A stretch of DNA of 64,000 nucleotides, taken from Nanobdellota archaeon (GTDB lineage Archaea > Nanobdellota > Nanobdellia > Woesearchaeales > SKGA01). Under the pieces are notes generated by a model. The model was not told where the DNA came from. It saw only the letters and a list, made by a program, of their open reading frames with translations, and did no database searches. How positions within the stretch are numbered: position 1 is the first letter of the stretch; each line of letters starts with the position of its first letter. A program made the position numbers and the translations under genes. The stretch covers positions 63,754 through 127,753 of the forward strand of contig JBNJHD010000002.1 in assembly GCA_051819805.1 (NCBI GenBank), given 5' to 3'. Shown here piece after piece: positions 16,944 to 35,652 of this stretch.

Positions 16944-17040
16944 GTACTAAAGAGTGAGTGTTGGTGATGGTTCTCGAAAGCTTTAAATATGATGGTGCTG
17001 CCTATTTTTATAATAACTATAGTTTGAAGCATACTGGTGT

Positions 17041-20000
17041 GTGAGGGTAGTGGCAGAATTCGGGCAATATTTCAAAGTCATAACGATATTTCTAGTTCTG
17101 ATTTCAATGATGATGATAGCAAGTGGAGTTGTGAGTGCAATTGCTTCAGACCGTTTCTCAATGGATGAAATGACTGGTGTGAATGCATGGTCTAAGGATG
17201 AACCTGAGTACTCTGATTTTCCTGTTTGTTCTGAAGACTCATCTTCTGAACAATTTTTTATTATAAACACAGCGAGTGAAAAAGAACTACATCCTATCAC
17301 TTACGATTTATGTCATGATGCAGATGATTTAGCTATGAATAGACTTTGTGATGAGGATCCTGAAGAGCTTTATTCGAGATTTGAAACGCCTTACACCGGA
17401 TTTGTGACTCAAAAATCCATTTCTACAAGTTCTTCAAGCCGTTGTTGGGGGAGTTCTCAATTAAGAATGACTGATAGAAGAAGTATGGGTATCTTATTAG
17501 GTGGTTACCTTTATGTTACTGATGATGGTGCTAAACTGTATGTCAATCTTAGAAATGGTAGACGAAAAGATAATGTCAGAGGATATGCTCATCTGACTAT
17601 TCACCCGTTTAACACATCTACAAGAACACCATTATTGACTGATCATGTGGATTTTGTTCCTGTTCAAAATTATTATCATTCGCAAAAAGGATGGACAAAT
17701 TCTGATTGGGGATATGGTGATGTTGCCCGTTCATCCAGCCAGTCTTTAGATAAAGGTATTTATTATATTACACTTGTTGCTGTTCAAAGAGGAAGTGAAC
17801 ATGATAGAAGCTCAAATACCAATGAGGAAAAACGAGTTTCGGTAAATTTAGCAGACGAATTATTATCCACTTCAGATGGAAATCATCTCGATAATAATAA
17901 TTATCTTGAGACATCAAAGTATGAAATAAAATACCGGCTTTTATCTGAGGAAGAGATTATAACGGAATATTCCGAATTAACAGATACTGTCAAAGACTAT
18001 TGTTATGCAGCAACCTCAAATCCAAATCCTTGGAACGAATCCTTGGTTGGTGTAGTTCCTACAGAAAGAACGTGTTGTGGTGATGACCAAGAAGATCTAG
18101 GTTATGTCTATGGAGATTTGGTCTGCACACAAGATGGTTGGGAACAACAATCTCCTCAAGAGTATTGCGCACAGCAAGTCACAGGGGAAAAAACCTCAAA
18201 CCAAGCGGTTTTTAACCAATATTATATAGGTTATATGGATAGTTTGACTTCACAAGATATCTATACTGAAAGTGATTTCTCAGATGGTTGTTGCGGCGAT
18301 GATGCAGAGTCAGGTTGTGTGAAAACATACACTTCATGTGCTGAAGTTCCAGAAGGAGACTGTGAGAACTATGGTTGTCAAAGAACAGGAGAAGCCACCG
18401 GAAGCGTCCAATGCTCAACATTTTATGATAAGGAAGGGTATTGTCCGGGTGACTGCACTAGAATTACTTTTTGTCATGAACCTGATAATCCTAGAAAGCC
18501 CTGTTCCAATGAGGTCGGTGAATGCCCTACTGATTGTTTTCTAAAAACTACGGGTTGTTCTGGATCATTCTCTTGTTCTGATTATTACTATTCCGATTAT
18601 TGCGATTGGGATTATGAGAATCCTGCTTGTAAAGGAGAGATAGATGATGTCGATTGCTCCAGTTTAACAACCAAAAATGAATGTAGTGATGAAACCGCTT
18701 GCACTTTTTATGGGTTTTGGACATCTGATTATGCATATGTAGCTGGTGATAACAGGTATTTCTGTAATAAAGATTATTCTGAAGATGATGGTGTTTGGTA
18801 TTGGGATGATGAAGGCAGTTCTGACTGGAAATGGTGGGATGCTGAAAATCACAAATACATAATCCACGAATATAATGGTGTGCAGTTCATCAGTAATGGT
18901 CAACAATGGTTCTACAGTTCAGCGAATGGAGAACTAGATGGTTCACATGGTCTTCCAGCAGATAACTTCACAGAATTTGATTATGATACTTTTGATTATC
19001 CTGATGGAGAAGAAGGTTTTAGCTGTGTTAACGCTCTTGAAACACTCGGTTTCAACACGTTTTTCGATAACGATCTTGACAGTCCGTTTGAGAAAGTTAC
19101 AGTAGTAAATAGTTCCGAATACTGCGGGAATAGTGATGGAGTCTGCTGTAAAGAAGATCGTGATGGAGAAATAGGAATGCTCAACGCGGAAAATTTTGAT
19201 TTTGACCAGTTGAAATCTGAATGTGGTTCTTGTTCTGTAAAAGGAACTGATCTTGCACAGTACCTCAATGGAGAAGGTAAGAGAGAACAATTCTGTCAAT
19301 CTTATCGATTCTTGACATCATGTGATGTTGATCAAGATCAACCAGTATTAGAACAATCATTGAGAGTCCGAAAAGACGCGTGCATGTTCAACTTGAAAGG
19401 ATGTCTTCAGAAAAGTCCTTATCTTGATCAGCAATGTGCTGATATCACTTATCAGGATGAATTCATTGGAGTGGGTTGTTCAGTAGATGCTCCTGTCTGT
19501 TCTGTTGGTGAGTATATTATCTCTAAGGATGTCGCTGATGATAATGAAGAATCACCAGTAGCTTGCTGTCTTGTTAACGTATCAGATATGTCAAGTCCCA
19601 CTCCTGAAAATGTCTGTAAACCACTTGATAAGATTAATAAGGATCTCTGTCAAAATGAATATTATGGAGATTGGTTTTCAGGTCCTATAGGACTACGCGA
19701 CTATACATGCAGTAGTTTCAACTTCAAGACAAATGATGATGGTGCTTGCTGTATAGGAGGTAAATGGACTCCAATACACAATACGCAAAAACTTGCAACT
19801 CTTGCTTCAATGGCAAGTCCTGAACAATTCATCTCCTACAATCATAGTGGTGATTCAAGATTTGCAGAGTGTTGCAACTCCTATTCAACTTGTTACAATG
19901 CAGAGCAATCATCACTTGCGGATTCATCTGATTATGCGTACTATGGAAATGGAGGGATCCTTCACACTATCAAGAATTTCGACACACACAATGAGAACGA

Positions 20001-22086
20001 TGAGGTTGTTGATTATGTGTTCCGTTCTTTCAAAGCTAAGAAAGGAAACCCGCTTACGATAACTGTTCCTAATAATGACTTAAATGAAATAAGGGATTTC
20101 AGCTCGTTTGACACTCTTCATTTTGACATAGCATATAATCATAATGTGATTGAAGATCTTGTCATCGAAGCTTCAGGAGATAGTGAATGTACAATTGAAA
20201 ATATCAATCAATATTTTACTAACGGTAATAACTCTATGCGATGGCATCATGTGAGAATACCTGACTTTAAAGATAAATGTAACGCCACTAGCAGCTGGGA
20301 TTATGTGAAAAAATTTAAAATTACCACTAATAATGTTGAAACTGCAGTCTCGATAGTGCTTGATAATTTTTATCTCGAAGACACCACTGCATCTAACACT
20401 GAGAATTATTACTGTGCCGGAGACTTCGGACGATGGGTAAAAAACCTTGACGGTGATTCCGATAAAGGATTTGAAGAGCAAGCGGATAGAACTACTTATG
20501 GTGCGTATTGGTATGCCTGTGATGCGCAAGCGAGCTATTCATGGACTGGAAGGCGATGCTGCGGTGATGATACGACAAAACCTTATTACTCAACCGAGTC
20601 TTCTGACACTCAATCAAGTGGAGAATACTATTCCGATGAAGATGCGGGTTGCTTTGCAGGAGTCCCTGTAGCTAACGATATGCCTGTAGGATACGCTCTT
20701 GGTGAAGGTAAGAAGTCAGAATATAATTCTCTTTTGTTCTATAAAGGTGATTTCGTTGCTTGTACGAAACCCATGAAAAATTACTTCTCGAACTACAATC
20801 TATCATTCAATGGAACATCCTCTGAAGGTGAGTTAGTCACGAAATACAACGAATCCTTCTCGATGCCGGGAACACACATCTGCGGTCCGGACGGCATGTG
20901 GGTGGATATCGACGAGATGCCGAAAGCACGATTCATCGCATCGAAGATGCATGACCTGACATTCACCGATGATAATAAGCAAAACCAGTACGATACATAC
21001 GATATATGGTGCTCGGACTTCTCACAAGGAGTGCCTTACAACGAGACACAACTTGCAGGTGTAGGGCTTGATGAAGGATCATCGTTCATCAACGATTTCT
21101 GCACTCTTCGCTATCTCAATGATGATGGTAAAGAACGAGCACTTATCGGCTTGAGCCTGAAAGGAACGTCCATCAGCAATTTCCTCATCAACATCTCAGG
21201 ACATCTGTCGATGATGACAGATCTTGAAACTGACGAATGGGGAGAATTTTCAGAGCGTTGTCCAGAAACGGCTGAAGAAGTGAGTTCAGATCGCTTCTTT
21301 GAACCTTGCGATAATGAAGTTGATGGTATTGTCATGGCATACAATCCGAAACTGAAGATACTCTTCATTGCAGAACTTGGTACTGATAGTAATGCAGACT
21401 CATATGAGAATTTCAATGGTTTCTTCAAACCGGAAGATGGTAATATTCTCAAATACACGAAACACATCTTCAAGAGTTTCCTCGGACTCTTTGATGGATG
21501 GTTCTCAGAAGACACGAGTGAAGAATACATCACGAACAATGTCTTGATGCCATCATTTACTAATTCGACCGTTGAATGGACTCGACTTTATGTTGGAAGA
21601 CGAGATAATAAAATGATCCAAGGTCTTGTTGAGGATCAGATCATTCTTGAAGATGGTCAAGGATTCAAAGATATCTATACAATCGAATTCAGTAATTTCG
21701 CAACTCCGATGAATGAGTTTGCAGAACAATATACTGATTATGATAGTGCTCTGGAAGCAGGTTATCTTCTTGGTGAAAACAAGCAAGTCATCTCCATTGT
21801 AAACCCTGAAGCCCGTTATAAGACCTTCCAACCACCATTCGATTGGCGACGACTCACGACAGCGTTCAGGATAGATGCTTCAAAAGGAGGAGAACCGATC
21901 ACTGACGCTACTGGTGATGGCGTTGTCAATATCAACGAGCTTTGCGATAAAGATGCTGATGGCAATCCTGTCTTCAAGTTCAACCAGAGCAGTTGTCACT
22001 TCTGGAAGCCGGAAAATTATGGTGAAGGTTCAGGTAATGTGACTTGTAATAAGGGAGAGCTTGTATTTTCAAGCTGTAGTGAATAA
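17041..22086 (+). CDS. giant (1681 aa) Cys-rich secreted/surface protein with an N-terminal signal anchor
   Basis: GTG start 25-40 nt downstream of TATTTTTATAATAAC. Hydrophobic N-terminus ITIFLVLISMMMIASGVV, then a long hydrophilic ectodomain with many Cys and recurrent vicinal CC motifs (TCCGDD, GCCGDD, RCCGDD). Confidence 0.6.
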   Translation: MRVVAEFGQYFKVITIFLVLISMMMIASGVVSAIASDRFSMDEMTGVNAWSKDEPEYSDFPVCSEDSSSEQFFIINTASEKELHPITYDLCHDADDLAMNRLCDEDPEELYSRFETPYTGFVTQKSISTSSSSRCWGSSQLRMTDRRSMGILLGGYLYVTDDGAKLYVNLRNGRRKDNVRGYAHLTIHPFNTSTRTPLLTDHVDFVPVQNYYHSQKGWTNSDWGYGDVARSSSQSLDKGIYYITLVAVQRGSEHDRSSNTNEEKRVSVNLADELLSTSDGNHLDNNNYLETSKYEIKYRLLSEEEIITEYSELTDTVKDYCYAATSNPNPWNESLVGVVPTERTCCGDDQEDLGYVYGDLVCTQDGWEQQSPQEYCAQQVTGEKTSNQAVFNQYYIGYMDSLTSQDIYTESDFSDGCCGDDAESGCVKTYTSCAEVPEGDCENYGCQRTGEATGSVQCSTFYDKEGYCPGDCTRITFCHEPDNPRKPCSNEVGECPTDCFLKTTGCSGSFSCSDYYYSDYCDWDYENPACKGEIDDVDCSSLTTKNECSDETACTFYGFWTSDYAYVAGDNRYFCNKDYSEDDGVWYWDDEGSSDWKWWDAENHKYIIHEYNGVQFISNGQQWFYSSANGELDGSHGLPADNFTEFDYDTFDYPDGEEGFSCVNALETLGFNTFFDNDLDSPFEKVTVVNSSEYCGNSDGVCCKEDRDGEIGMLNAENFDFDQLKSECGSCSVKGTDLAQYLNGEGKREQFCQSYRFLTSCDVDQDQPVLEQSLRVRKDACMFNLKGCLQKSPYLDQQCADITYQDEFIGVGCSVDAPVCSVGEYIISKDVADDNEESPVACCLVNVSDMSSPTPENVCKPLDKINKDLCQNEYYGDWFSGPIGLRDYTCSSFNFKTNDDGACCIGGKWTPIHNTQKLATLASMASPEQFISYNHSGDSRFAECCNSYSTCYNAEQSSLADSSDYAYYGNGGILHTIKNFDTHNENDEVVDYVFRSFKAKKGNPLTITVPNNDLNEIRDFSSFDTLHFDIAYNHNVIEDLVIEASGDSECTIENINQYFTNGNNSMRWHHVRIPDFKDKCNATSSWDYVKKFKITTNNVETAVSIVLDNFYLEDTTASNTENYYCAGDFGRWVKNLDGDSDKGFEEQADRTTYGAYWYACDAQASYSWTGRRCCGDDTTKPYYSTESSDTQSSGEYYSDEDAGCFAGVPVANDMPVGYALGEGKKSEYNSLLFYKGDFVACTKPMKNYFSNYNLSFNGTSSEGELVTKYNESFSMPGTHICGPDGMWVDIDEMPKARFIASKMHDLTFTDDNKQNQYDTYDIWCSDFSQGVPYNETQLAGVGLDEGSSFINDFCTLRYLNDDGKERALIGLSLKGTSISNFLINISGHLSMMTDLETDEWGEFSERCPETAEEVSSDRFFEPCDNEVDGIVMAYNPKLKILFIAELGTDSNADSYENFNGFFKPEDGNILKYTKHIFKSFLGLFDGWFSEDTSEEYITNNVLMPSFTNSTVEWTRLYVGRRDNKMIQGLVEDQIILEDGQGFKDIYTIEFSNFATPMNEFAEQYTDYDSALEAGYLLGENKQVISIVNPEARYKTFQPPFDWRRLTTAFRIDASKGGEPITDATGDGVVNINELCDKDADGNPVFKFNQSSCHFWKPENYGEGSGNVTCNKGELVFSSCSE

Positions 22087-22148
22087 TCACTGTACTGTTT
22101 CATTCTTCGAAACTTTTATTAACAACATAAGAGGTAGTTATTAGTATC

Positions 22149-23030
22149 ATGAGAGCTCCAATAGCAAACAAGACGCACTATCCAAACGGCATTACGCTGC
22201 TTGATAAGACATTCGAACAACTCTTCAACCACGAGAAAGGTCCTGGTGCACTACCAATGAAACGAAGCCCTGGACTTTCGAAATCGAAAGCAAGCGTTGA
22301 GGACGTCAAAGCAGTCATCAGTCCACATGCTTCTTATGAATTGGCAGGACCATGCATGGCATGGAGCTACGGCGCTCTGGCAGAGAATGAACGACCGGAT
22401 ATCTATATCATCGTCGGACAAGCGCAAAAAAGCACTGGTGAAGGTCTATCCATGGAGACGTTCCAGACACCATACGGGGAAGTGAGAGTCGATCAGGAGT
22501 TCGCACGAGCACTGGTCGAGAAAAAACATATACTTCACAATGACAAGCTTCACCAGAAGGAGTCACTCATTGAAGTGCAACTACCTTTTTTGCAGTTCAT
22601 CAATAAACCAACTATAGAGAAAGTGAAGATACTTCCTCTATTTCTCAATACTGAAAGCAACGTCAAAGAACTAGCAGTCGATATCAAGGAAACGCTGCTC
22701 GATCAGAACAAGACGGCAAAATTCATCTTCGTCTCGAACATGACTTCATACGGACGGAGCTTCCATTTCGTACCATTCACAGAAGAAGTCAAAGAGAATA
22801 TCGCTGCAATCGACAAGAAGCTACTGCAGCCACTCAAAAGCTATGATGAAGAATGCTTCTTTGAACAAGTCAAGGAGACGATGGCACCGATATCAGGATA
22901 CAGCGCACTGCGATTATTTTTCAGGCTTTTCCAACCTAATACTATTGATCTCAACCAGTACTATCTTTCTGGAGAAATCAATGATGATTTCACCACGACG
23001 GTGAGTTTTGCCAGTGTCGTACTCCGCTGA
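22149..23030 (+). CDS. Memo-like protein (AmmeMemoRadiSam system protein B family)
   Basis: VISPHASYELAGPCMAWSYGAL and the hallmark HQKESLIEVQLPFLQF match the conserved EHS-E-QLPFL motif of the MEMO1/UPF0103 family. Confidence 0.65.
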   Translation: MRAPIANKTHYPNGITLLDKTFEQLFNHEKGPGALPMKRSPGLSKSKASVEDVKAVISPHASYELAGPCMAWSYGALAENERPDIYIIVGQAQKSTGEGLSMETFQTPYGEVRVDQEFARALVEKKHILHNDKLHQKESLIEVQLPFLQFINKPTIEKVKILPLFLNTESNVKELAVDIKETLLDQNKTAKFIFVSNMTSYGRSFHFVPFTEEVKENIAAIDKKLLQPLKSYDEECFFEQVKETMAPISGYSALRLFFRLFQPNTIDLNQYYLSGEINDDFTTTVSFASVVLR

Positions 23031-23100
23031 ACTAGCGGTTAGTTTTTTTTCTCAAGACAAAACTTTAAAAAGATAGTTCGCTCCAAACTATCTCAGGGCA

Positions 23101-26100
23101 ATGAGAACAAAAGGACAAGCGACGATCTTTGTCATACTGGGTATAGTGATACTTCTAGTTGTCATGCTGCTACTGTCAGCGCAACAGAAGATCATAGAGC
23201 AGCGCCTCCAACAAGAAGCTGAAGATTCCATACAAGATTTTGTCCAACTCTATTCTATCAATCACTATGTGACAAGCTGTATGGACACTGTGACTACAGA
23301 TGGTCTGACTCTGCTCGGAGAACAAGGGGGAGTGATCTATGAAAGCCAGGGAGGACTGACGCCTGACCCTTCAAGTGAACCATCGATTAAAGGAGTGCAT
23401 TACCTCCCTTACGATCATGAATACACGTCGTATAACAGTAATGGTGAGGAACAGACTTTCATTGACAGAAGAAACGTTTCATATGCAATCAAAGAATTTA
23501 TCGAATGTCACTCAGCATTATATTATTCTCCAGTCCCAGTCGATCTGGATGATGAAAATACTAGTTATTATCCTGTCAAGAATACTTATTTCAAAGATTA
23601 TCAACGACTATATGTGAATTTCTTCTTCGATACACCACCAGGTTGTATGGGTTCTAATCCGAAATATCGCTTCAGCGGTTATCTCGGTGCGAATCTTATC
23701 CCTAAACTATGTTATTTCAACGGAAGCAACAAGCCCTACGAAGAGGATGATACTTACGATCCTTTAGAACAAACAGATCCGTGCAGATGGCAGTATTACG
23801 ATAACAAGGATGATCCCACATCAATGCAGCGACAACTTGAAACGTATGTTGAAAATAATATAGGGAACTGTGTTGATATGACTATTTTCACGAAACGAGT
23901 AGGCAACATTACTGTCGATAAGGAAGCTATCAAGGCAGAAAGTATCTTACAGGATCCCAATGGACTTCTCATGAAAGTCCATTACCCCTTTGATGTCATT
24001 CTCTCAAACGGTAACACTTACAATCATGAAGTAGCGTTCCAGAAAGAATTCGATGTTAACATAAAAACACTCTATGCTTACCTCTTCGATCTCTTCACGA
24101 AGATGGTGAGGCAACCATCATTCGATCTCATGAAGGACTGGAATGTCTCAAATGAGACGACGAACAGGTATTTTCACTCTACATTTGAACTTGATTATGA
24201 TACTCAAGCATGCGCTGACTGCTCGTCACGAGGAGTGCTTGATGATATCATCACACTTACAGATAGGGGATCGCTTCTTGACAGGAAACCATTCTCGATG
24301 ACCTTCGCCATCCAGAACAGAAAACCAGTACTTAATTATCTCAATGACGAACTCGTCACAAGCGAATATGATGGGGTGGAACTCGATTACCAATTCTTCA
24401 CGAACTCAACCATAACATTTGATCCCGAAGCGATTGATCCGGATTATGATAATGTGACATATATCTATAAGGGCTGGAAAGAAGAGTATGATGAAATACT
24501 GAATTATACTTGTTGTCAAGAAACCAATGATTGTTCTCTTGAAACTTATCATGAATCTGACTGTTATACTCTTCAAGAAGATGCAAAACCTCTCAATTGG
24601 TCAAATTCAATTCTCTTCCAAAAAACAGGGAGGATGGCAAGTTATCAGAGCAACATCAATGATACGGGTTATCACGAGGTCACGCTCGTGGTGGAAGACG
24701 AGCATGGTCGTAAGGATTTCCAGATCATCAAGCTCATCATCTTTGACCTTCCACGAGCACTTCTCAAGATGGCGAACTTCTATGACGATGTCAATAATAG
24801 CTTTGCTTCAGTAGAGGACCTTTATCTTTTCAACGGTACAGCATCCAATGCTTCAAACCTTCTCGATGGAGAGATAGATAATTATATCTTCAGAGATAAA
24901 ACTGAAGGATTCATCAAAAACACGAGCGAAGGTTATGTGCTCATTGAAGATAAACCTGCTTCATTCTCGAATATGAGTCTGTTCAATTTCACAAAGGATG
25001 CACTCGATGATCATCAATCCTTGCGTCATGAGATCAGTCTGATCGTAGAACAGAATGATATGGGGATAAAAGCGACAAGCTCTCCAGTTTCAGACTTCAT
25101 CAACGTCACGCAGTGCCTGCCTCATGGTTTTTTCATTCCAGAAGAAGATGAAGATCATAGTTCATTCTCACAAGAGTATTATAGGATTCCGGATATTGAG
25201 GCTGATGAGGCTCGTGAGATCGAGTATTACTGGGAGTTCGAGGATGATGATCCATATCAAGTGCCTCACGTGTGCTGTAAGCCGTTCGATCTTACCCAAG
25301 AAGCTCCAAATATCACAGGAGGGACATGGATAGATGATAAGACTGTATGTTTTGAAAAAACCTTCAACACGACCTATCCTTCTCTTGACCTGTCAGAACC
25401 GTACGCGTATCTCGCCGGTGCATGGCTTGATATTGGAGACGGACAGTTGAAACCATACACGTACGAGCGCTACGATAATATATATGGTGATGCTCTTTCA
25501 GATCTTTATATGTCGGGCTTCCCTGAAAATGCTGAAAATCTCGATGCTGACGATATCAACAATATCTATGAAGTCTCATACAAGCACAAGTGCAGTGGAT
25601 CAAGTGGTAAGATGTGCGCGGGAGAGCTCGATGTCGACTGGAATGTTATTGATGAGTGTAATGATCTTGAGAATGATGCTTCTGACTTGCTTGGAGCAAA
25701 GGATCCTGTTGCGCGATGCCAAGGACCTGGAATGGAAGGTAATGATGAACCGTTCACCCAACGAAAAGCAGGACAAGACCTCAATGGGGGGCTCGTGTGC
25801 GCAAACTTCACCGGAAAAAGCAATTATGAGAAGGATGTGTTGGCAGTGACTGCTGATAATTATGACGATTTTTCGTATTTTAATCTAGATAACGACGACG
25901 CTCAATTGATAGAAGAAGGGTATTGTGCACAACCAGAAAATGGTTTGAGTATTGATGCAGATGATGCTTCTATTGAAATATCATCGCATGGAAAAGGTCC
26001 ATTCACTTGTCAAGCGATATGTGCAGATGGCGCGTGCGGATATTATAATTATGAATTCTGTGCTTGCGGTTCAGATGGCGATTCTGAATGTGAAGATATT

Positions 26101-26631
26101 CCTGCAAGCAAACTCTTCGTTGATGGTAAGACGTACGAGGTCTGTATAGATACGTCTGGGAAGACTTCTTGTGACAGCTCCTGTGATGCTAACAGACCCA
26201 GTTCTTCAAAAGGAGCTTGCTACTGCGCCACTGTAGGGAATGTCGGTGATACTGTTTCTGAAGATCGTGAAGTGGATGCATATTTCAAATCACTTAGTGC
26301 AATCTATAAAGATGGTTCGTTCCATAAATTGACAGCATACCCTTCATTTATTTCTACACCATCTTGCTGCTATAAAGACGGCCAGATTTTCACATCAGAA
26401 GAAGAGGAAAAAGTATGTTATGATGGCAAGGTGTACACTGAAGGTCGAATCGATAACGATATCACTAATGCGGACTTATTAGCTTCAGAAGGTAAGATCC
26501 ATTGCTGTGGAGAAACGAGTGATCTTGGTTACTGCACTCCCTATGAGTATGGATCTTCGATAACTGTCGGTTCTGACCTTTTCAAGTGCGAGAAAGATCC
26601 TATCTTCGGTTCTCGTTGGATTGACCAATAA
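23101..26631 (+). CDS. giant (1176 aa) secreted/surface protein with a class III-like signal (TKG|QATIFVILGIVILLVV)
   Basis: KG-Q cleavage-type N-terminus plus a hydrophobic helix. The C-terminal third is Cys-rich with vicinal CC motifs. Confidence 0.6.
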   Translation: MRTKGQATIFVILGIVILLVVMLLLSAQQKIIEQRLQQEAEDSIQDFVQLYSINHYVTSCMDTVTTDGLTLLGEQGGVIYESQGGLTPDPSSEPSIKGVHYLPYDHEYTSYNSNGEEQTFIDRRNVSYAIKEFIECHSALYYSPVPVDLDDENTSYYPVKNTYFKDYQRLYVNFFFDTPPGCMGSNPKYRFSGYLGANLIPKLCYFNGSNKPYEEDDTYDPLEQTDPCRWQYYDNKDDPTSMQRQLETYVENNIGNCVDMTIFTKRVGNITVDKEAIKAESILQDPNGLLMKVHYPFDVILSNGNTYNHEVAFQKEFDVNIKTLYAYLFDLFTKMVRQPSFDLMKDWNVSNETTNRYFHSTFELDYDTQACADCSSRGVLDDIITLTDRGSLLDRKPFSMTFAIQNRKPVLNYLNDELVTSEYDGVELDYQFFTNSTITFDPEAIDPDYDNVTYIYKGWKEEYDEILNYTCCQETNDCSLETYHESDCYTLQEDAKPLNWSNSILFQKTGRMASYQSNINDTGYHEVTLVVEDEHGRKDFQIIKLIIFDLPRALLKMANFYDDVNNSFASVEDLYLFNGTASNASNLLDGEIDNYIFRDKTEGFIKNTSEGYVLIEDKPASFSNMSLFNFTKDALDDHQSLRHEISLIVEQNDMGIKATSSPVSDFINVTQCLPHGFFIPEEDEDHSSFSQEYYRIPDIEADEAREIEYYWEFEDDDPYQVPHVCCKPFDLTQEAPNITGGTWIDDKTVCFEKTFNTTYPSLDLSEPYAYLAGAWLDIGDGQLKPYTYERYDNIYGDALSDLYMSGFPENAENLDADDINNIYEVSYKHKCSGSSGKMCAGELDVDWNVIDECNDLENDASDLLGAKDPVARCQGPGMEGNDEPFTQRKAGQDLNGGLVCANFTGKSNYEKDVLAVTADNYDDFSYFNLDNDDAQLIEEGYCAQPENGLSIDADDASIEISSHGKGPFTCQAICADGACGYYNYEFCACGSDGDSECEDIPASKLFVDGKTYEVCIDTSGKTSCDSSCDANRPSSSKGACYCATVGNVGDTVSEDREVDAYFKSLSAIYKDGSFHKLTAYPSFISTPSCCYKDGQIFTSEEEEKVCYDGKVYTEGRIDNDITNADLLASEGKIHCCGETSDLGYCTPYEYGSSITVGSDLFKCEKDPIFGSRWIDQ

Positions 26632-26723
26632 AAGGTCAAAACATTTATAAAGAGGTTGTGGTTAAATTACCATAATCGAGGCATCTATGAGGGTAAGTTG
26701 CCTCCACTGTACAGTTAATAAAG

Positions 26724-29700
26724 GTGTGTCGTGTGGTGAAAAAACAATTATTCATATCTCTAGGGCTCTTAACACTAGTATTCGTTCTATTCTCAACAAT
26801 TGTTACAGCAGACATCTGCGTTCCATCATACATCGATATTGATGGAGTGTCAGGCACACAACAGACACTATCATACCCTCAAAGTAATAGCTGTCCGCCG
26901 ATGCACGAGTTAGTGGAAGGAGACTTGAGAGAGGATAAGGAAACACTTGAAAGGACTTCTTGTTGTTGCGATTGTTCTGACGATTATGAAGTTCTGCGTT
27001 TTGGCGCACCAAGTGGTTATGAACACCTTGTTTCAACAACGTACTGCACTGAAAAAGGTTTTGATGTAGGAGTTACAGATGAAACTAATTGCACCATTTC
27101 ATGTAAGAATGAATGTGATGGCAATCAACAAGTTCTTATCGAAGAATCAGATCTCTACCATGTTGTTTCAGGATATGTCTTTAGTGCAGCAGATAGTGAT
27201 CCTCTTGCCAACATTTCCGTATTCGCCCTCGATCAAGGAGATGACGTGATTGTGGAAGCGAAGACGGATGCAGAAGGTTTCTATAACTTAAGCTCAGTAC
27301 CTGGAGTTCAGAACGGAGAGAATAAATTCTTGGCAATGACATCATCAACTCACGAATTAACATGCGAGGATAATATTGAGAACGTGGAATTAACAGAAGA
27401 TACTGAACTGAACTTCACGATGAGCAGTTGTCAACAAAATCCTGATTATTGTATGCCTGACTGGGAAATCGGAGAGTGGGGCGAATGCAAACCATACTTC
27501 AGCCAAGGATTCGATGGTCAATACATGCAGAGAAGATCGGTGATAGACCTCAATGAATGCGACAGATCATCAGGAAAACCGGAAAACTGGAGACTCTGCG
27601 AAGGAACAGTAGTTATGCCCAACTGCGGCAATGGGGAACTTGAAGAAGGTGAATTCTGTGATCCTGCAACACAAGAAGGAAGTGAGATCTTCAAATTACC
27701 TGATGGTGATACTGTCACTCAAGTCACATGCAAAGATATTCTTGGAGAAGGATACAGCGATGATGAACTGATAACCTGCACGGATACATGCAATTATAAT
27801 TATGATTCATGCACGCCTGTTTGTGGTTTCTACTGTGACCGGAAAGAAGAATGCGCTATGGAAGAATGCGAATCACTCTGTGAAGGAGAACCACTGTGCG
27901 GCAACGAGTGCGAGGGACAAAAACCAGTATTTCTTCCAGTCAACGATAGTGTGGACTTTTCAACAACGAGAAACATCTTCGACTTGTACAATACTACTGT
28001 CTTAGCGCCAGATCACTATCCAGGAATCAGATATTTCGATCAATCAACAGATGTAGAACTCACATGGAGGTTCAACGGAACTTGTGAAGATGAGATTCTC
28101 GCATATCAAGTGGTCTATTGCGAAGAAAATGCACGCTCACAAGAATGCCAAGGAGATACTCGCCAGAAAATCGAAGTGCCGAAAGGACAATTCCAATATT
28201 TGGTTGAAGGAATTCTTGAACCAAAAACATCCTATTGCTACAATGTCTGTGCTATCCAACGAGATGGAAGCACAAGCTGTGCGTATGAAGAAGGCTCGCT
28301 TCCTTGTTTCAACTCCGGAGAAGAGTATTGCATGGAAGAACACCCACCAGGGTATAACTGCGAAGAACACGATGATGGTGAATACGCACCAACAGGATGT
28401 CTTATAAAAGAATTCAAAGGGTACGGGAGAGAACCAATCTCATTTACCAATCATAGTTATGAAGTGGCAGTGACTTGCGAGCAAGGAGAAGTCTGTGTCG
28501 AAACAGAATATGATCCTCTTAACGATGGAGGTGGCGAGAAATTAGGAGCAATGTGCAAAGCACCGCTCAACTGCAGCACCTGCAATGGTATGTTCGGTCT
28601 ATACAGTTCAGTGCCGGGAAAAAGAATAACATATACAAACGATAATGATCAAGAAAAAAAAGTATCATGTAACAAGTTCATCAATCCAACTCCAGAACAA
28701 TTCTCGACGAACTGGGCAGGTCTTTGTTATTATGACACGTCACGAACATCATTTGACTACTTCGATCAATGTATGAAAGTAGATTCTTGTTATGATTATA
28801 AATCAGAACAAGCTTGCGCTAACGATCCTTGTAATAAGATGGATGGTGCTTGCCAATGGAGTTTTTATTCTGAAGAATCAGGGATTGGTGTGTGCAAACC
28901 AATCGACGAGCAATATGAAGAGTGCGGACGATGTGATGCTGATTCTCCGCTAGGATTCTGCAATGAACATATTTGTGAGAACAACTATGGGAACTGTTAT
29001 TATCGAGAACCTTCAAAAAATACTATTGATCAATCAGAAGAGAATATACTCGTATCACTTCTAGGGATATCGTACCAAAACGAACGTTATGATGATGAAC
29101 TAATACCGACTTGCATCAACAAGAAAGATATGGCTTGCCATCTCTATCAAAATGAGAAGGATTGTATCAACGATTCAGCAAATACATCTATTGATGTGAC
29201 CTATGAAGGAATGACTCCTCTATATGGAACTAATGAGTTGATGTTCGCATCACAAGACAGGTATGGGTTCGGTAGATGCGCATGGTCGGAAAGTGAAGAT
29301 GAACCTGATTTCAGTGGTTGTCACAAGAATTCTGATAACCGATATAACGACTCATTATCGTGGTCAGGTTTTACGCAAGGTGATTGTTACTCCACAGCAT
29401 ATTCTTCAGATCTTCGATGCTTACAGGATGTAACTCCACCAAATACTATGCTCATATTACGAAAACCACCGCAAAATCAGAACTACCTAGGACTTCCCAC
29501 TTACGGTATCAATGAGTTGGCGAATCTCACCTTCAGTGTCGATGACGATACTTGGGCAGCAGATGAGTCCACAACGTACTTCTCAATATTATCAGAACAA
29601 GAATGTCCTGCAGAGTGCTATGATTTTACCTGCAATAACATGAATGATCAAGAATGCATTAGAACGGCGAATAATTGTAAAGAACAAGGATGCGGAGTAT

Positions 29701-30896
29701 ATCCTACAACTCTATTGACGGATATGATACAACCAGCATATCAAGATAAATCAATAGCTCATGGAGTTCATAAGCTCAAATATTTCTCCATGGATCCTGC
29801 GAAAAATATTGAAGTAATCAATTCAACAGAACTATTTATCGATAGCACTGCTCCGGAAATATATTTTGATCGAGAAGAAGATCTCAATATATCAACATTC
29901 AGACTTCACGACATTTATCTTAGCAACGTCACTATCAATTTCAAAACTTCAGAACAGGCACACTGTCATTACGAGATGACATATATATCGTCTTCAGGAG
30001 AAGAACTCACTTATGGACCTGATGATATGGAACGAGTCAATGATACGTTTGAAGCGAACTATCGGTTCGTGCCTGATAATTTCTATAACTTCACCATAGT
30101 CTGTGAAGATGAGTATAAGAACAGGGCAAGAATGTCAATACCATTATGGGTTGAAGGAGATGTCTCCATATCAAGAGCTCAACCGAAATGGAAGGTGTAC
30201 AATGCAGACCAAATAGAAGATATTCTTCTTTCACTCCACACACTGGATGAAGCGAACTGCAGATTCGATCCTGAGAATCCTACTTATGATCAATCACGCT
30301 ACAGCTTCGCACCCACAAATCAAAGCACATATCATGTGAAATTATTCACTGAGTTCGTCAATGATCTCGCACCGCAAAATGTTGAAGGAGTCTACTCCTA
30401 TTACACTGCGTGCAATTATACGAACAGGACACTCACAGAAGGTTTGCTCTCGGATATGATATTTTTCTCCATAGATGTGACTGGTCCAGAAACACAACTT
30501 TTTTACTTGAAAAACAATGATTATGAATTATTCCACGAAACAGGAAATGATGCTACTCCACGAGCATCAGAACGATCCATTAAAATATTCTGCGATGATT
30601 CCAATGGGCAACTTCCAGGAACAACTTTCGGCTGTAAAGAAATCCATTATTGTTATAGTGATAGTTCAATTCTTGACCTTACGGACTTCAATCCAGAAGA
30701 AGATTGTGAAAACGGAGAACTATTAAGCACTCATGGAGAACCATACTTTGAAGATACTTTGGATTTCACTACAGATACGAATAAGAAGTTATACTTCTAC
30801 GGTATTGATAATGGAGGAAATGAAGGAGATCTTCATAGGAAGAACTTGAAAGTGATCGACACGAATTTCACACGACCAATATTTACAGTCATCTGA
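26724..30896 (+). CDS. giant (1390 aa) Cys-rich secreted protein (Sec-type signal)
   Basis: GTG start. Signal peptide LFISLGLLTLVFVLFSTIVTADI, abundant CxxC and CCC motifs and an EGF-like cysteine spacing. Confidence 0.6.
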   Translation: MCRVVKKQLFISLGLLTLVFVLFSTIVTADICVPSYIDIDGVSGTQQTLSYPQSNSCPPMHELVEGDLREDKETLERTSCCCDCSDDYEVLRFGAPSGYEHLVSTTYCTEKGFDVGVTDETNCTISCKNECDGNQQVLIEESDLYHVVSGYVFSAADSDPLANISVFALDQGDDVIVEAKTDAEGFYNLSSVPGVQNGENKFLAMTSSTHELTCEDNIENVELTEDTELNFTMSSCQQNPDYCMPDWEIGEWGECKPYFSQGFDGQYMQRRSVIDLNECDRSSGKPENWRLCEGTVVMPNCGNGELEEGEFCDPATQEGSEIFKLPDGDTVTQVTCKDILGEGYSDDELITCTDTCNYNYDSCTPVCGFYCDRKEECAMEECESLCEGEPLCGNECEGQKPVFLPVNDSVDFSTTRNIFDLYNTTVLAPDHYPGIRYFDQSTDVELTWRFNGTCEDEILAYQVVYCEENARSQECQGDTRQKIEVPKGQFQYLVEGILEPKTSYCYNVCAIQRDGSTSCAYEEGSLPCFNSGEEYCMEEHPPGYNCEEHDDGEYAPTGCLIKEFKGYGREPISFTNHSYEVAVTCEQGEVCVETEYDPLNDGGGEKLGAMCKAPLNCSTCNGMFGLYSSVPGKRITYTNDNDQEKKVSCNKFINPTPEQFSTNWAGLCYYDTSRTSFDYFDQCMKVDSCYDYKSEQACANDPCNKMDGACQWSFYSEESGIGVCKPIDEQYEECGRCDADSPLGFCNEHICENNYGNCYYREPSKNTIDQSEENILVSLLGISYQNERYDDELIPTCINKKDMACHLYQNEKDCINDSANTSIDVTYEGMTPLYGTNELMFASQDRYGFGRCAWSESEDEPDFSGCHKNSDNRYNDSLSWSGFTQGDCYSTAYSSDLRCLQDVTPPNTMLILRKPPQNQNYLGLPTYGINELANLTFSVDDDTWAADESTTYFSILSEQECPAECYDFTCNNMNDQECIRTANNCKEQGCGVYPTTLLTDMIQPAYQDKSIAHGVHKLKYFSMDPAKNIEVINSTELFIDSTAPEIYFDREEDLNISTFRLHDIYLSNVTINFKTSEQAHCHYEMTYISSSGEELTYGPDDMERVNDTFEANYRFVPDNFYNFTIVCEDEYKNRARMSIPLWVEGDVSISRAQPKWKVYNADQIEDILLSLHTLDEANCRFDPENPTYDQSRYSFAPTNQSTYHVKLFTEFVNDLAPQNVEGVYSYYTACNYTNRTLTEGLLSDMIFFSIDVTGPETQLFYLKNNDYELFHETGNDATPRASERSIKIFCDDSNGQLPGTTFGCKEIHYCYSDSSILDLTDFNPEEDCENGELLSTHGEPYFEDTLDFTTDTNKKLYFYGIDNGGNEGDLHRKNLKVIDTNFTRPIFTVI

Positions 30897-30927
30897 AGTT
30901 CAATAAAAAGAGGTTGGGGATTGATTT

Positions 30928-33900
30928 ATGCATGTCACTAAAACAATATTTCTGTTATCACTCATACTGTTAGTTCTCACACTCCCTCTCTCTTCAGCAG
31001 AATTAGATTTTGACGATATCACTTTTGTAGAGACAAACAAGTCCCGACCAGTAATCAAAGCTTCATACAATCTTCAAGACGCACCAATCACTATCAAGGA
31101 TTATTCTCTAGTCAACAATCATGGTGAGAAAGTACCTATAACCTACTCTCATAATGATGATAGGAACAAGTTCAACTTCTCACTCGATACTCAAGGTTCA
31201 TTATTCGGTAAATATGTTCTTCAAATAGTCGCTAGTGATCAGGATGATAACCTGAACGTTGATTTTTTTGGAATAGATGTCAAGCCAACACCTATGAAGA
31301 TATGGGTCAAAGAACCCAAAAATGATGATATTGAAATTCCTGAACAACAACACATTGCAGTCAATGATCATATTCCATTCAACCTCACGCTCCAATCAGA
31401 AACTTCTGCCTTGTGTCGTATCGTGAAAAACACGGGTTTTCTAGAACAAAAAACGACAGATCAACTCTACAATCTCGGAAAACGATTCAATGATGGCAAT
31501 AACACGTTTACGAAAACCCACAAGATATCTGTTCTCACTCAAAACCAAGAGAGTTCTCAAACACATCTTAATGTAGGATCCTTTGACTATGATGATTACG
31601 AAGAGGAAAACCATTATTTGGTCATCTGTAAAGAATTCAAGATAGGAGCGCAAGAACCTGATTACAAGAGACAACTATTCTACATCGGTTATGATCTCAC
31701 TGATCCTGAGTTCACTGTAAATATGACTCCACAAGTTATTTTTGATGAGTCCAGCCTCGAGACAGAAGCTCTTATAGACTCAAATGATGATAGTCTCATC
31801 TGCTCGTATGATTTCATCAAGAATACACAACCGCAATACAAGCCAGAAAGTAGAAGACTTTCATTCAACACGAATTCAATAGAAGACTATAGTCCGAATA
31901 TCACGTCAACATTTGACTTTTCTGATAAGGGAACTTACGAGTATGAGACGGACTATCCATACACTATCAACTTCACTTGTACAAACCCTGCAATGAGAAT
32001 TTCTTCAGAACTAGCATCATTCAAGATAAGGCTCAAACTGTCATTTGATATTCTCTATGAAGATTCAGGATATTATTCAACATCAAGTCCTGAGCTTCAT
32101 TTCAGAACTAGGAAAGCAGCTTCTTGTCGTTATCAATTCGACTCCGAAGACTATGAGAATACTGATGGGGATGAACATAACCATACAGTGAAATTGAGCA
32201 ATCTGGAAGAAGATGAGTACTCGATAAAACTCAGATGCACATCTTTAGGCGGTGAAGTGAAAGAAGACGTTTTTGACTTCACGATCGACACGACAGCACC
32301 ATCAACACCTGTTGCGCTATCCAGTGATGATAATTGCAATAATCGATGGACAATCTCACTAGCTGAACCTTCTGAAACAGTCTATTATAATATTTCGCTC
32401 TATAACAGCACAAAAGCAACAGAAGGAAACCTCTTACACCAGACACTCACTTCATTCACGAAAGGAATGTTCATGTTCGAAGCACCGGATACTATCGATG
32501 TACTTCCTAATGCCACCTATATTTGGAAAATAACAGCTATTGACCGTGCAGGGTTAACATCAAGCGAGCTTTCGCATTCGACAATAGGAAGACGTCCTGA
32601 TGCTATTGTCTGTGATACTGACTATCCGACTGCGACATTGCAGAAAAAGCCAGTAGGTGAAAACTCATTCAATATCACTATTTCATGTTCTGACAAGCAT
32701 AGTGGCTGTACAGATATGTACGGTTATTCAGAACTGTCTCCCGGTCAAAATTGTTCAGTAGCAAGCTACCAGAATAATAACTATAACGACACACTCACTA
32801 TTCCTTCAGAAACACTATTATGTTATCAAGTAAGGGATGAGGCAGGTCACACGACCAATAAGAGTGAATTTTTATCAACAGATATAGGGATAGAATTAGT
32901 ATCACCTTCCTCAGGTATTGCTTTTGAAAAACCTTTCCAACTCGCTATAAGCACGAAACGAGAAGCAATATGCCACCACGGACCAGTCCGAGATGATCAT
33001 CCACGAGCTCTAGATGAATGGTATGTTTCTCTGGAAAACTTCACTTCTCAAAATAGCCTCGACCATTATGATTCTATAGCAGCAACCGATTATGAAGAAT
33101 TAGATGAAACTGAAGATGAGATTGAAACTGACTGGATTGTCATTTGTCAAGAAGAAGAATTGACCTATCATCAGAAACAATTCTCTCTAGGATATGATTT
33201 GAGTCCTCCAAAAATAACAATCACAGCTACACCAAACCCTATTACAAGCGCTTCAAAACAAACAACAACACTTGAAGTGACTGTTGATGATCAGGCAATA
33301 TGCACATTCCTTGACAGAGAGGGCGTTCCGAGAGGGTTTTCAGGATATGATCCTGACGATATTGATAATTACAAGCAATCATTCTCAACAGTGATCGACT
33401 ACTGGGGATTCACAGAGACTATAACACAATCTGTAAAGTGCCGGAATCTCGCTCAAAAATATTCACAAGAGACATATGATATCAACATAGAATCAGATAA
33501 TGATCTAGGAATCAATATTACAACCCCTGATTATACCAATAACAACAGAGTAGAACTAGTCGCCACCACTACTGACGATGCAACTTGCTCCTATCAGACT
33601 TCCCGAGCAGGACCACAGAGAGAATTCCAGATTACAGGAGGAACAGAACATACTAAATATATAACTCTTGAAGAAGGAAGCAATACAGTAGGTGTGTACT
33701 GTGAAGATGCGCAAGGAGGCTCAGAAAGCATCGTGTTCAAAGATGTCACGGTTGATACGATTCCACCGGTTGTTGAGATACTTTCAGCAGAAAACACCTG
33801 CTCACTAGAGCAGATTTCAGGAATGATATTGACCAACGGAACAGGATCAGCAATAGAAACATACACCTACTCCATCAATAATGGTTCAGCAACCATAGTG

Positions 33901-35652
33901 AGTGGTGAGAGTGAGATTGGTTCGTTTACAGAACAATTCGCTCTGACACGAGCAAAAACATATACGATCACTGCAGAAGCTACTGATAAAGCAGGAAACA
34001 CAGCCACAATCTCAACAACTGTCAGGGCAACACCGTATTCCCAAACCGAATGTGATGTGACTCCACCGGAAGGAAATGCGAAAATAAGCTATAATTGGAA
34101 TTATAATGAAGTGACTGTTTCCTGTAAGGATGAAGAGTCCGGTTGCACTGATTTTTATACTTACTATTTGTCCCAAGACTCTTGCCAACAGCCATATGAT
34201 CTCGAATATTATGAACAAGCACCTTTAGAAGTTACTGATTCAGGTGTTTTTTGCTATGAAGTATATGATAACGCTGCAAACTCTTATACTGATTCAGTAC
34301 CGATCACAGTCGAGAAGCAATGCTTCAACGGAATAGAGGATCCTGATGAGGATGGAGTAGATTGTGGCGGTCCGTGCCCTGCACAGTGCGGAACTTGTGA
34401 CAATGGAAAACAAGATCCTTTTGAGTTGGGTGTGGATTGCGGTGGAATATGTGAGAGCATCAGGACATGCACTGGAGAGGATGACGACGAAGATGAAGGA
34501 TGCAGTTCTGACGATGATTGTCCGTACGGACAGATATGTAATTATGAAGGGCTATGTGTCGATGAACCTAAAAATGGATCCGATAAGGACAAACCATCAG
34601 AGCCGATCGATGAAGGTCCTGAAAAACTAGGTCTTATACTCCTCATTATAGGAATATTCTTATTTCTTGGAGGAGGAGGATATATAACTTATTCTCGATA
34701 CAACAAACACCAGCAGATCCAGCAACAACAATCAGTCGTGCAACAACAGATGCAACAACGTCAACAACAAGAGCTTGCTCGAAAACGTCAAGAACAACGA
34801 CGTAAAACCATGGAACGACTTCATGAACGTAAACAGAAACAAGAAGAAGCACGCCAGCAACGAGTCAACGAACGACAACAAAAACGAAAATCACTGCTTG
34901 GCGCTTTCGAAGGAGAAAAAGGACAAGAAGAACAGCAGGATTCTGAAGAGAAGTCAGAGGAAGAGCAGAAAGAACAAGAAGAAGTGAAGAAGAAAGTTTT
35001 TGAAAAACAAAAGGATGAAACATCATTACGTGAAAAGAAAGAACGACAAGAACAAGAGAAACAACAAGTTGCAAGAGAAGAATACCAGAACATCATGAAC
35101 TTGAAATCAGGAACTAAAAAGGAACGCAGTGTCTTTGATGAGCTGGAAAGCGTTACTACCAGCAGTGTTTCCGCAGAAAACCTTCAGGAAAAATATGATC
35201 TCTCAGAACCACAATCTGACTCTACTGACAATAGCGCTTCAGAACAAAATGCGCTTGACGAATTAGGATCTATAACTGAAAATCAAGAATCATCATCAAG
35301 TCCACAAAACGATACTGATACCGGCGGATCTCAACCTTCAGATTCGTCTGATGCGCTCGATGAACTTGAAGAACTGGTCAATACCAGACAAGATCGTTCA
35401 TCAAAAAATCAGTTACTTGAAGAGCTTTCAAATATAGCTCCTGAAAATAGAGTGCACAAACTCGTTGAACAGATAGAAACACAAGCATCCAAATCAATAC
35501 TCGACACTACTGAATTAGCGCAATCCATTAAGCAATTGATTTCAAACGAACTTGTTTCTTCAGAGCAAGCTAAGCAAACGATAATAACCCTTGTCAAGAA
35601 TCATACCTTAACAGAAGAGCAAGGCGAAGAGCTAATAAACACTATCAATTGA
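30928..35652 (+). CDS. giant (1574 aa) surface protein with an N-terminal signal, a C-terminal TM anchor and a roughly 320-aa Q/E/K/R-rich cytoplasmic tail
   Basis: Signal ...LPLSSA|ELD, TM LGLILLIIGIFLFLGGGGYITY near residue 1245, then QQQSVVQQQMQQRQQQELARKRQEQRRK... low-complexity coiled-coil-like tail. Confidence 0.6.
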   Translation: MHVTKTIFLLSLILLVLTLPLSSAELDFDDITFVETNKSRPVIKASYNLQDAPITIKDYSLVNNHGEKVPITYSHNDDRNKFNFSLDTQGSLFGKYVLQIVASDQDDNLNVDFFGIDVKPTPMKIWVKEPKNDDIEIPEQQHIAVNDHIPFNLTLQSETSALCRIVKNTGFLEQKTTDQLYNLGKRFNDGNNTFTKTHKISVLTQNQESSQTHLNVGSFDYDDYEEENHYLVICKEFKIGAQEPDYKRQLFYIGYDLTDPEFTVNMTPQVIFDESSLETEALIDSNDDSLICSYDFIKNTQPQYKPESRRLSFNTNSIEDYSPNITSTFDFSDKGTYEYETDYPYTINFTCTNPAMRISSELASFKIRLKLSFDILYEDSGYYSTSSPELHFRTRKAASCRYQFDSEDYENTDGDEHNHTVKLSNLEEDEYSIKLRCTSLGGEVKEDVFDFTIDTTAPSTPVALSSDDNCNNRWTISLAEPSETVYYNISLYNSTKATEGNLLHQTLTSFTKGMFMFEAPDTIDVLPNATYIWKITAIDRAGLTSSELSHSTIGRRPDAIVCDTDYPTATLQKKPVGENSFNITISCSDKHSGCTDMYGYSELSPGQNCSVASYQNNNYNDTLTIPSETLLCYQVRDEAGHTTNKSEFLSTDIGIELVSPSSGIAFEKPFQLAISTKREAICHHGPVRDDHPRALDEWYVSLENFTSQNSLDHYDSIAATDYEELDETEDEIETDWIVICQEEELTYHQKQFSLGYDLSPPKITITATPNPITSASKQTTTLEVTVDDQAICTFLDREGVPRGFSGYDPDDIDNYKQSFSTVIDYWGFTETITQSVKCRNLAQKYSQETYDINIESDNDLGINITTPDYTNNNRVELVATTTDDATCSYQTSRAGPQREFQITGGTEHTKYITLEEGSNTVGVYCEDAQGGSESIVFKDVTVDTIPPVVEILSAENTCSLEQISGMILTNGTGSAIETYTYSINNGSATIVSGESEIGSFTEQFALTRAKTYTITAEATDKAGNTATISTTVRATPYSQTECDVTPPEGNAKISYNWNYNEVTVSCKDEESGCTDFYTYYLSQDSCQQPYDLEYYEQAPLEVTDSGVFCYEVYDNAANSYTDSVPITVEKQCFNGIEDPDEDGVDCGGPCPAQCGTCDNGKQDPFELGVDCGGICESIRTCTGEDDDEDEGCSSDDDCPYGQICNYEGLCVDEPKNGSDKDKPSEPIDEGPEKLGLILLIIGIFLFLGGGGYITYSRYNKHQQIQQQQSVVQQQMQQRQQQELARKRQEQRRKTMERLHERKQKQEEARQQRVNERQQKRKSLLGAFEGEKGQEEQQDSEEKSEEEQKEQEEVKKKVFEKQKDETSLREKKERQEQEKQQVAREEYQNIMNLKSGTKKERSVFDELESVTTSSVSAENLQEKYDLSEPQSDSTDNSASEQNALDELGSITENQESSSSPQNDTDTGGSQPSDSSDALDELEELVNTRQDRSSKNQLLEELSNIAPENRVHKLVEQIETQASKSILDTTELAQSIKQLISNELVSSEQAKQTIITLVKNHTLTEEQGEELINTIN

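Follow-up and report, generated by a model that had tools for sequence, protein, structure and literature searches.

What do four adjacent genes for cysteine-rich proteins of 1176–1681 residues, followed on the same strand by a series of pilin-like genes, build at the surface of an archaeal cell? We examined this question for positions 17,041 to 35,652 of a 64,000-nucleotide stretch of DNA (the window) from a Nanobdellota archaeon of the Woesearchaeales (GenBank assembly GCA_051819805.1, contig JBNJHD010000002.1), which encode the giant proteins A, C, D and E together with a homolog of Memo. Few uncultured archaea are as widespread as Woesearchaeota. We are highly confident that the giants are exported components of a conserved pilin-linked surface cluster. 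A more specific reading, to which we give somewhat better than even chances, is that they are disulfide-stabilized extracellular parts of a lineage-wide, Epd/Tad-like, pilin-linked apparatus that probably contacts bacteria.

The gene content of the region is exactly as an earlier, preliminary description had given it: five plus-strand open reading frames (ORFs), four of them giants (Table 1). Its further claims of N-terminal export signals on all four, one of them of class-III type, of cysteine-rich sequences, and of a co-oriented ~36 kb surface locus that takes in the pilin-like genes were borne out as well, with the cysteine enrichment of E being modest. The same-strand run is unbroken from 17,041 to 53,555 (36.5 kb), and its genes mostly lie −23 to 33 nt apart, with four wider intervals of 110–227 nt. 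At the window GC content of ~40%, stops make up ~6% of random codons, so open frames of 1176–1681 codons are not chance occurrences, and each of the four giants has translated homologs in other genomes.

Export signals were judged by hydropathy and inspection, and by their conservation in homologs. A, D and E carry conserved Sec-type leaders, and C begins with MRTKG followed by QATIFVILGIVILLVV, a class-III (prepilin-type) leader of the KG/Q form (the slash marks the processing site). Cysteine makes up 4.16% of A, 3.40% of C, 5.68% of D and 2.29% of E, as compared to 0.94% in the 23 housekeeping ORFs of the window; 11 of the 36 cysteines of E lie within one 100-residue block directly before its transmembrane segment. 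The counts are even (A, 70; C, 40; E, 36; D, 78 without the leader cysteine) and many of the residues are invariant across homologs. CxxCH is absent from the four giants and occurs once in F, a further cysteine-rich protein of the cluster; CxxC motifs are few. Since the cysteines are conserved and even in number and come without heme or Fe-S motifs, they fit disulfide-bonded ectodomains rather than cofactor binding. A multiheme cytochrome or an Fe-S protein as the cause of the high cysteine content was ruled out on these motif counts.

N-glycosylation sequons are ~1.4–2.3-fold over expectation in C, D and E (1.79, 1.58 and 1.40 per 100 residues; ~0.9 expected) and not enriched in A. They are strongly depleted in F (0.23 per 100 residues) and in the hydrolase G (0.26). 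BLASTP detected no paralogy among the four giants. Some short motifs recur: a CxDYx5Cx4Cx5-9CxW module is present in six copies in F (residues 476–842) and once in D (residue 689), and a CCG[DE][DT] motif is found at residues 345, 417 and 1173 of A and at residue 1135 of C, around which the A and C families give one weak profile match (probability 22%, E 1e-3).

In an effort to place the cluster among its relatives, genomes were scanned at one genome per species. The scan returned 30 loci, and the meaningfully titled records are all Woesearchaeota or Nanoarchaeota metagenome-assembled genomes (MAGs). The window proteins were then mapped onto 35 loci (L001–L035). Wherever the contig is long enough, a single gene order is found, namely A, Memo, C, D, E, the four small pilin-like genes and the short pilin gene. 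This order is kept in ~30 related genomes, down to an identity of 21–25% for C; the preliminary description had held that a lack of conservation or synteny would count against it, and both were observed here. Toward L007, the closest relative, identity is 47–65% for the giants and 83% for Memo, and the corresponding ranges for close relatives are 40–65% and 71–83%. Third-party MAGs at fourteen of the loci (L006, L008–L012, L017, L019, L021, L026, L031, L033–L035) are titled “uncultured Methanosarcinales archaeon”, which is probably a placeholder or a labelling artefact.

C belongs to a very large family without annotation. An exhaustive search returned 1260 representative clusters at E ≤ 1e-3, of which 201 also pass E ≤ 1e-30, with members typically ~1000 residues long. 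All the named members that were sampled carry the label “hypothetical protein” and come from Woesearchaeota, Nanoarchaeia or an unclassified archaeon. Residues Q6 (checked in 65–111 members) and G14 are near-invariant, and the C-terminal third holds many invariant cysteines. In the most distant loci, the C homolog has only 420–660 residues, corresponding to residues 1–460 of C. Profile searches against PDB sequences with the A and C families gave no match, and a viral contig collection held no relatives of the C family. An AlphaFold2 model of C built from a 65-sequence alignment (mean pLDDT 80.5, pTM 0.61) has an N-terminal helix over residues 4–74 (helices 4–49 and 51–74) followed by several beta-rich domains; the cysteine-rich C-terminus is poorly modelled. 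The model thus has the long N-terminal helix and globular head of a pilin. Foldseek matched it in the PDB to protocadherin EC1-4 (4e-7) and the SiiE adhesin (1.5e-6) with a probability of at least 0.99, at an identity of 9–12% and with low TM-scores since only part of C aligns. Its modelled middle resembles the strings of beta-sandwich domains in calcium-binding Ig/cadherin-like adhesins such as Salmonella SiiE and the protocadherins, from which C differs in the low identity and partial alignment and in its anchoring by a pilin-type N-terminus. On this model, C is best described as a giant modular pilin-like adhesin with tandem cadherin/Ig-like beta-sandwich domains.

For D and E, just 4 and 6 homologs sharing words with them turned up among 5.8 billion proteins, and each comes from Nanobdellota, Nanoarchaeota or a metagenome contig. 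NCBI lists an identical copy of D, which belongs to a Nanobdellota archaeon MAG and bears the label “hypothetical protein”. D gives weak CarboxypepD_reg and fn3 matches below the Pfam cut-offs, and most of its homologs have a CC or CCC motif directly after the leader, where D itself has a single cysteine. The ectodomain of E gives one weak Big_13 Ig-like match, also below the cut-off, and no other recognized domain; one transmembrane segment at ~1230–1255 is followed by a ~320-residue cytoplasmic tail rich in Q, E, K and R. Just outside this segment, E contains two DxxExGVDCGGxC motifs (residues 1138–1175, ~nt 34,339–34,452) that have no Pfam match. In the distantly related locus L005, a single 2727-residue protein aligns consecutively to D 578–1389 (2e-25) and to E 660–1372 (2e-20), and the alignment to E takes in the transmembrane segment and the charged tail. 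Single genes of 1600–2900 residues that match both proteins were found at seven loci. Given this fusion in distant relatives, D and E would be two halves of one functional chain that is split here.

A has no membrane anchor. Its C-terminal ~1150 residues are conserved and its N-terminal ~500 residues vary between relatives, one of which has an unrelated Gly-rich (GGGGAGG-type) module in their place. The Gly-rich homolog is encoded by two overlapping ORFs in L003 (135–5262) and by a single ORF of 1709 residues in the near-identical L008 (3844–8973), so that the split in L003 is probably a frameshift or an assembly error. The gene between A and C encodes a Memo homolog (PF01875, 6.6e-35; TIGR04336, 5.4e-40), predicted to be cytoplasmic, whose two family matches identify it as the Memo-like protein B of the AmmeMemoRadiSam system. 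Domains of the partner proteins of that system, AMMECR1 and the radical-SAM enzyme, were found in none of the scanned window ORFs. Memo lies between A and C in ~12 related loci (with counterparts in L003–L014, L017 and L005) at 36–83% identity and is absent from the most distant loci.

The proposed link to filaments comes from the leaders. Under a strict rule, a short basic leader ending in [KR][GA] and then directly ~20 hydrophobic residues, pilin-type leaders are present on 12 of the run's 21 ORFs, compared with 1 of the 24 ORFs beyond it (Fisher p = 1.3e-4). Those that pass are C, F, G and nine smaller ORFs, and the leader motif is conserved in homologs from the 30 loci. C and the four small proteins directly downstream of E have glutamine at +1 (G/Q or A/Q), a residue that reportedly marks EppA substrates. 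The run also contains a 68-residue ORF, below the cut-offs of 90–100 residues first used for listing ORFs, whose first 4 nt overlap the end of the gene before it. Its counterpart in L005 (23,793–23,933) has 46 residues, consists of a KKG/Q leader and a helix only, and lies at the same relative position. From their sequences, both look like minimal pilins lacking a globular domain.

The proposed link to bacteria comes from G, the next-to-last gene of the cluster, whose product combines NlpC/P60 (9.9e-14), SLT (7.2e-6) and CHAP (1.5e-5) domains. The L005 cluster ends in an Amidase_2 protein with a KKA/Q leader (27,535–28,184), and the N-terminus of this protein matches that of G (8.7e-5). The two proteins thus share a terminal position and a leader type and carry two different sets of catalytic domains. 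When metagenomes were scanned with G, L036 was the one locus of use; in it, two pilin-like ORFs lie directly upstream of the G homolog (1577–2404). To our knowledge, murein is not known in archaea of this group, so the predicted target of G, a peptidoglycan hydrolase by its domains, is presumably the bacterial wall. Host interaction is plausible because the cluster ends in such an enzyme.

Murein hydrolases have been noted in these archaea before. The “large lytic murein transglycosylases” of Woesearchaeota (AR20 and Lake A MAGs) were read as a mark of predation or a “vampiristic” habit, and Woesearchaeota were also proposed as degraders of cell debris (PMC9723730); peptidoglycan hydrolases are likewise prominent in Nanoarchaeota (PMC12352652). 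The text of the former paper contains no mention of pili, pilus or adhesins, and that of the latter none of pilin, class III or type IV. Like the reported enzymes (PMC9723730, PMC12352652), G is a very large Woesearchaeal protein with an SLT (GH23-type) domain, to which NlpC/P60 and CHAP domains are added. It differs from them in bearing a pilin-type leader and in closing a conserved cluster of pilin and giant-protein genes.

With its order conserved in ~30 genomes, its pilus-like genes and its terminal hydrolase, the cluster has the look of a conserved apparatus for contact at the cell surface, not of a hypervariable island. Beyond export and conservation as a set, we infer the following steps. 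The [KR][GA]/Q leaders would be cut by a prepilin peptidase encoded elsewhere. Short pilins, for which the 94- and 68-residue products are candidates, would form a thin filament, and at its tip or base the giant pilin C would come together with the four small pilin-like proteins. D would dock on membrane-anchored E to form a stalk that the long cytoplasmic tail of E ties to the cell interior, and A would be secreted as a partner whose N-terminal module can be exchanged. With this apparatus the small cell would be held to another one, most likely bacterial, and G would open the wall of that cell locally.

The closest counterpart in the literature is the Epd pilus (“system 1”), which has many pilins, a major pilin lacking a globular domain and adhesin-like accessories, and which is reported also from some DPANN archaea (10.64898/2026.04.22.720090). 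As in the Epd pilus of Methanococcus maripaludis, the genes form a co-oriented multi-gene cluster with many class-III leaders and mature N-terminal glutamines (PMC4858521); the 68- and 46-residue products resemble its very short major pilin, and both loci encode large adhesin-like accessories. In contrast to that system, no EpdA/EppA peptidase, ATPase or platform genes were found in or near this cluster (searched by Pfam in the window, and in the flanks only by a GspE-type Walker A motif), its proteins match neither pilin Pfam models nor a DUF2341/PilY-like domain, its giants are cysteine-rich proteins of 1200–1700 residues, and it includes Memo and a peptidoglycan hydrolase. DUF2341, found in PilY1-like adhesins of archaeal clade-1 pilus loci, had no Pfam match in A, C, D, E or 13 members of the A family.

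Bacterial type IV pili bear a tip complex of four minor pilins and the large adhesin PilY1, and modular pilins such as PilB and PilC of Streptococcus sanguinis join a pilin to further domains. The row of four small pilin-like genes beside a very large adhesin-like protein recalls the former, and C, with a pilin N-terminus and adhesive domains in one chain, recalls the latter. Unlike either, the proteins here have an archaeal leader type without E+5, and the likeness is one of layout rather than of demonstrated sequence or domain homology; C, a predicted pilin, is at ~1176 residues far larger than the known modular pilins.

Several observations weigh against the apparatus as drawn above. No protein of the window matches the curated pilin models (Pfam Class_IIIsignal, Pilin_N and others) at E ≤ 0.1, and none of 53 homologs of the small pilin-like proteins does so at E ≤ 0.05; these homologs share no family. 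NCBIfam pilin models likewise have no match among the leader proteins of the run. Because no pilin model of Pfam matches, the label “pilin” rests on the leader motif and one predicted helix, and a class-III leader can be a mere membrane anchor, as in archaeal sugar-binding proteins. Neither an assembly ATPase, a platform protein nor a prepilin peptidase was found among the window ORFs by Pfam, and a GspE-type Walker A motif, the one feature for which the flanks of L001–L035 were checked, is absent from the window and from ~10 kb on the sides of the 35 loci; the filament machinery may be encoded elsewhere in the genome. A has no Pfam or PDB-sequence match, even when searched as a 13-member family, and an AlphaFold2 model of D (residues 1–1200, 5-sequence alignment) reached a pLDDT of 33 and was not used. 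The place of Memo beside surface proteins is unexplained by the apparatus. Finally, the strict conservation of the cluster in every related genome is as compatible with a core envelope structure as with an organ of host contact.

A fuller version of the apparatus, which we put forward tentatively as a possibility, is a contact organ, not described before, that would be peculiar to Woesearchaeota. It would combine a thin filament or pseudopilus of Epd/Tad-like type, the giant modular pilin C, a disulfide-rich stalk (D with E, A and F) and the pilin-mounted hydrolase G, and would serve attachment to living bacteria and the breaching of their walls. If true, this would amount to cross-domain episymbiosis or predation, and it would supply the “missing” cognate pilins of the nanoarchaeal type IV ATPases (Makarova et al. 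2016). Those pilins were not found by Makarova et al. 2016 (PMC4858521), and unrecognizable pilins in “dark-matter” islands of DPANN genomes were described by Makarova et al. 2019.

Parts of the picture are already known, namely archaeal pilins with class-III leaders, Ig-like DPANN surface proteins and Woesearchaeal murein hydrolases. Earlier work had left the isolated large murein hydrolases, with their hints of predation, unconnected to the “dark-matter” pilin islands. In the searchable literature we did not find the fixed ~36 kb architecture, the size and spread of the giant pilin-like family, the split and fused forms of D and E, the hydrolases with pilin leaders or the embedded Memo gene. 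One fixed set in ~30 genomes links the giant pilin-like family, the three other giants, a minor-pilin-like set and a pilin-leader hydrolase. The cluster thereby offers concrete, testable candidates for the attachment machinery of Woesearchaeota and a marker for which lineages target bacteria.

The main rival to a contact apparatus is an S-layer-like envelope, in which D would be the outer and E the membrane-anchoring half of the main wall protein (SlaA/SlaB-like, or single-chain where the two are fused), A and C would be further envelope components, and the pilin-like genes would be neighbors or layer anchors. We regard this reading as unlikely. Known S-layer proteins are poor in cysteine, whereas the giants hold 2.3–5.7%, with D at the upper end; the ~320-residue cytoplasmic tail of E is atypical of S-layer anchors, and an envelope role leaves unexplained why ~14 pilin-leader genes and a murein hydrolase are packed with these genes as tightly as in an operon. 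The arrangement of a secreted D and a C-terminally anchored E, fused in distant relatives, does mirror the distinction between two-part and one-part S-layers. The weak Big_13 match in E, the sequon enrichment in C, D and E, and the presence of the cluster at the same place in every related genome sampled also speak for an envelope, and the giants diverge faster than Memo, as S-layer proteins usually do. Putative DPANN S-layer proteins are similarly Ig-rich and unrecognizable by sequence (10.1101/2023.10.27.564410), and S-layer-like proteins occur in archaeal type IV pilus loci (Makarova 2016, PMC4858521). As with SlaA/SlaB and the putative DPANN proteins NEQ300 and MJ1_0160 (10.1101/2023.10.27.564410), adjacent genes encode a large secreted and a C-terminally anchored protein with many sequons and no similarity to characterized sequences. 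Set against these systems are, besides the high cysteine content and the tail of E, the linkage to pilin-like genes.

Quite unlikely, in our view, is a self-serving pilus for adhesion, biofilm formation or DNA uptake, with large accessory adhesins for mineral or organic surfaces and no living host or prey, in which G would merely scavenge free peptidoglycan or dead bacteria as food. The Methanococcus Epd pilus, the closest described system, serves surface adhesion (10.64898/2026.04.22.720090), the adhesin-like fold of C is silent on its target, and degradation of cell debris has been proposed for Woesearchaeota (PMC9723730). Such scavenging fits poorly with the pilin-type leader on the hydrolase, and with a hydrolase that is the conserved terminal gene in two distant lineages. 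Because this position is kept with different catalytic domains, the hydrolase points to action at the apparatus rather than to a free enzyme.

The preliminary description had also raised hypervariability of the giants and their diversification by a diversity-generating retroelement (DGR), and here it did not stand. We found no reverse transcriptase in any scanned ORF of the window, no direct repeats of at least 30 nt resembling a template/variable pair within 14–56 kb, and no repeats of at least 45 nt in the whole window except an AT-rich pair near Cdc6. Taken per 100 residues, identity shows a fairly flat profile over the proteins against relatives at close, middle and distant range, the swapped N-terminal module of A excepted. 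A hypervariable host-interaction island, toward which the lower identity of the giants relative to Memo and the module swap in A would point, is very improbable given the lack of a reverse transcriptase and of repeats, the even identity, the gene order fixed across ~30 genomes and the lack of viral relatives. A DGR target was ruled out on the same grounds. The divergence of the giants is instead, as far as alignments tell, faster-than-average surface-protein evolution combined with module exchange rather than targeted hypermutation, which corrects the expectation of hypervariability at such loci.

Table 1 Genes of the co-oriented run, with positions in the window.
Feature	Position	Strand	Description
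A	17041-22086	+	1681 aa; secreted giant, Sec-type leader, 70 Cys, three CCGDD motifs
Memo / AmmeMemoRadiSam-B homolog	22149-23030	+	293 aa; without signal peptide
C	23101-26631	+	1176 aa; giant pilin-like protein, KG/Q leader, Cys-rich C-terminal third
D	26724-30896	+	1390 aa; secreted giant, Sec leader, 5.7% Cys, without anchor
E	30928-35652	+	1574 aa; type-I membrane protein, Sec leader
Small pilin-like protein 1	35684-36205	+	173 aa; SG/Q here, [KR][GA]/Q in homologs
Small pilin-like protein 2	36216-37328	+	370 aa; KA/QIQLQFNWIFV, motif conserved
Small pilin-like protein 3	37348-37851	+	167 aa; KA/QIQ
Small pilin-like protein 4	37867-38373	+	168 aa; KA/QQEIIGL
Short pilin candidate	38484-38768	+	94 aa; KG/SELSMNVIII; C-terminal half with 8 Cys
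F	38746-41340	+	864 aa; 7.6% Cys, KRA/L-type N-terminus; uncertain start codon
Pilin-like protein	41491-42174	+	227 aa; KKG/F
Short ORF	42171-42377	+	68 aa; GKKG/MEFQ and one hydrophobic helix; candidate pilin lacking a globular domain
Six leader genes, first three	42402-44144, 44123-44638, 44659-46296	+	Hydrophobic or pilin-like N-terminal leaders
Six leader genes, last three	46330-47232, 47229-47717, 47714-48352	+	Hydrophobic or pilin-like N-terminal leaders
G	48349-52998	+	1549 aa; predicted peptidoglycan hydrolase (NlpC/P60 + SLT + CHAP), KKG/V pilin-like N-terminus
Last gene of co-oriented run	52995-53555	+	186 aa; Sec leader and one transmembrane segment

The six leader genes between F and G matched no known domains. 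NCBI places the start codons of D and A further in, by 4 and 3 residues, respectively. An A-rich stretch with a TTTAWAWA-like box lies upstream of every giant except E, and upstream of the short pilin gene (16,944–17,040, 22,087–22,148, 23,031–23,100, 26,632–26,723 and 38,374–38,483); examples are GAAAGCTTTAAATAT upstream of A and AAAACATTTATAAAG upstream of D. These elements suggest separate archaeal promoters despite the common strand.

Scans of the window for tRNA genes and Rfam families were empty. The locus is flanked by archaeal genes that were identified with Pfam, namely those for TBP, MCM, Cdc6/Orc1, RPA and the DNA polymerase small subunit. Beside Cdc6/Orc1 (5486–6703, minus strand), GC content falls to 27% at 6000–8000, and an AT-rich 45-nt direct repeat pair (7090–7134 and 7150–7194) lies there by Cdc6, near the genes for MCM, TBP and the polymerase small subunit. 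This low-GC repeat region is probably a replication origin.

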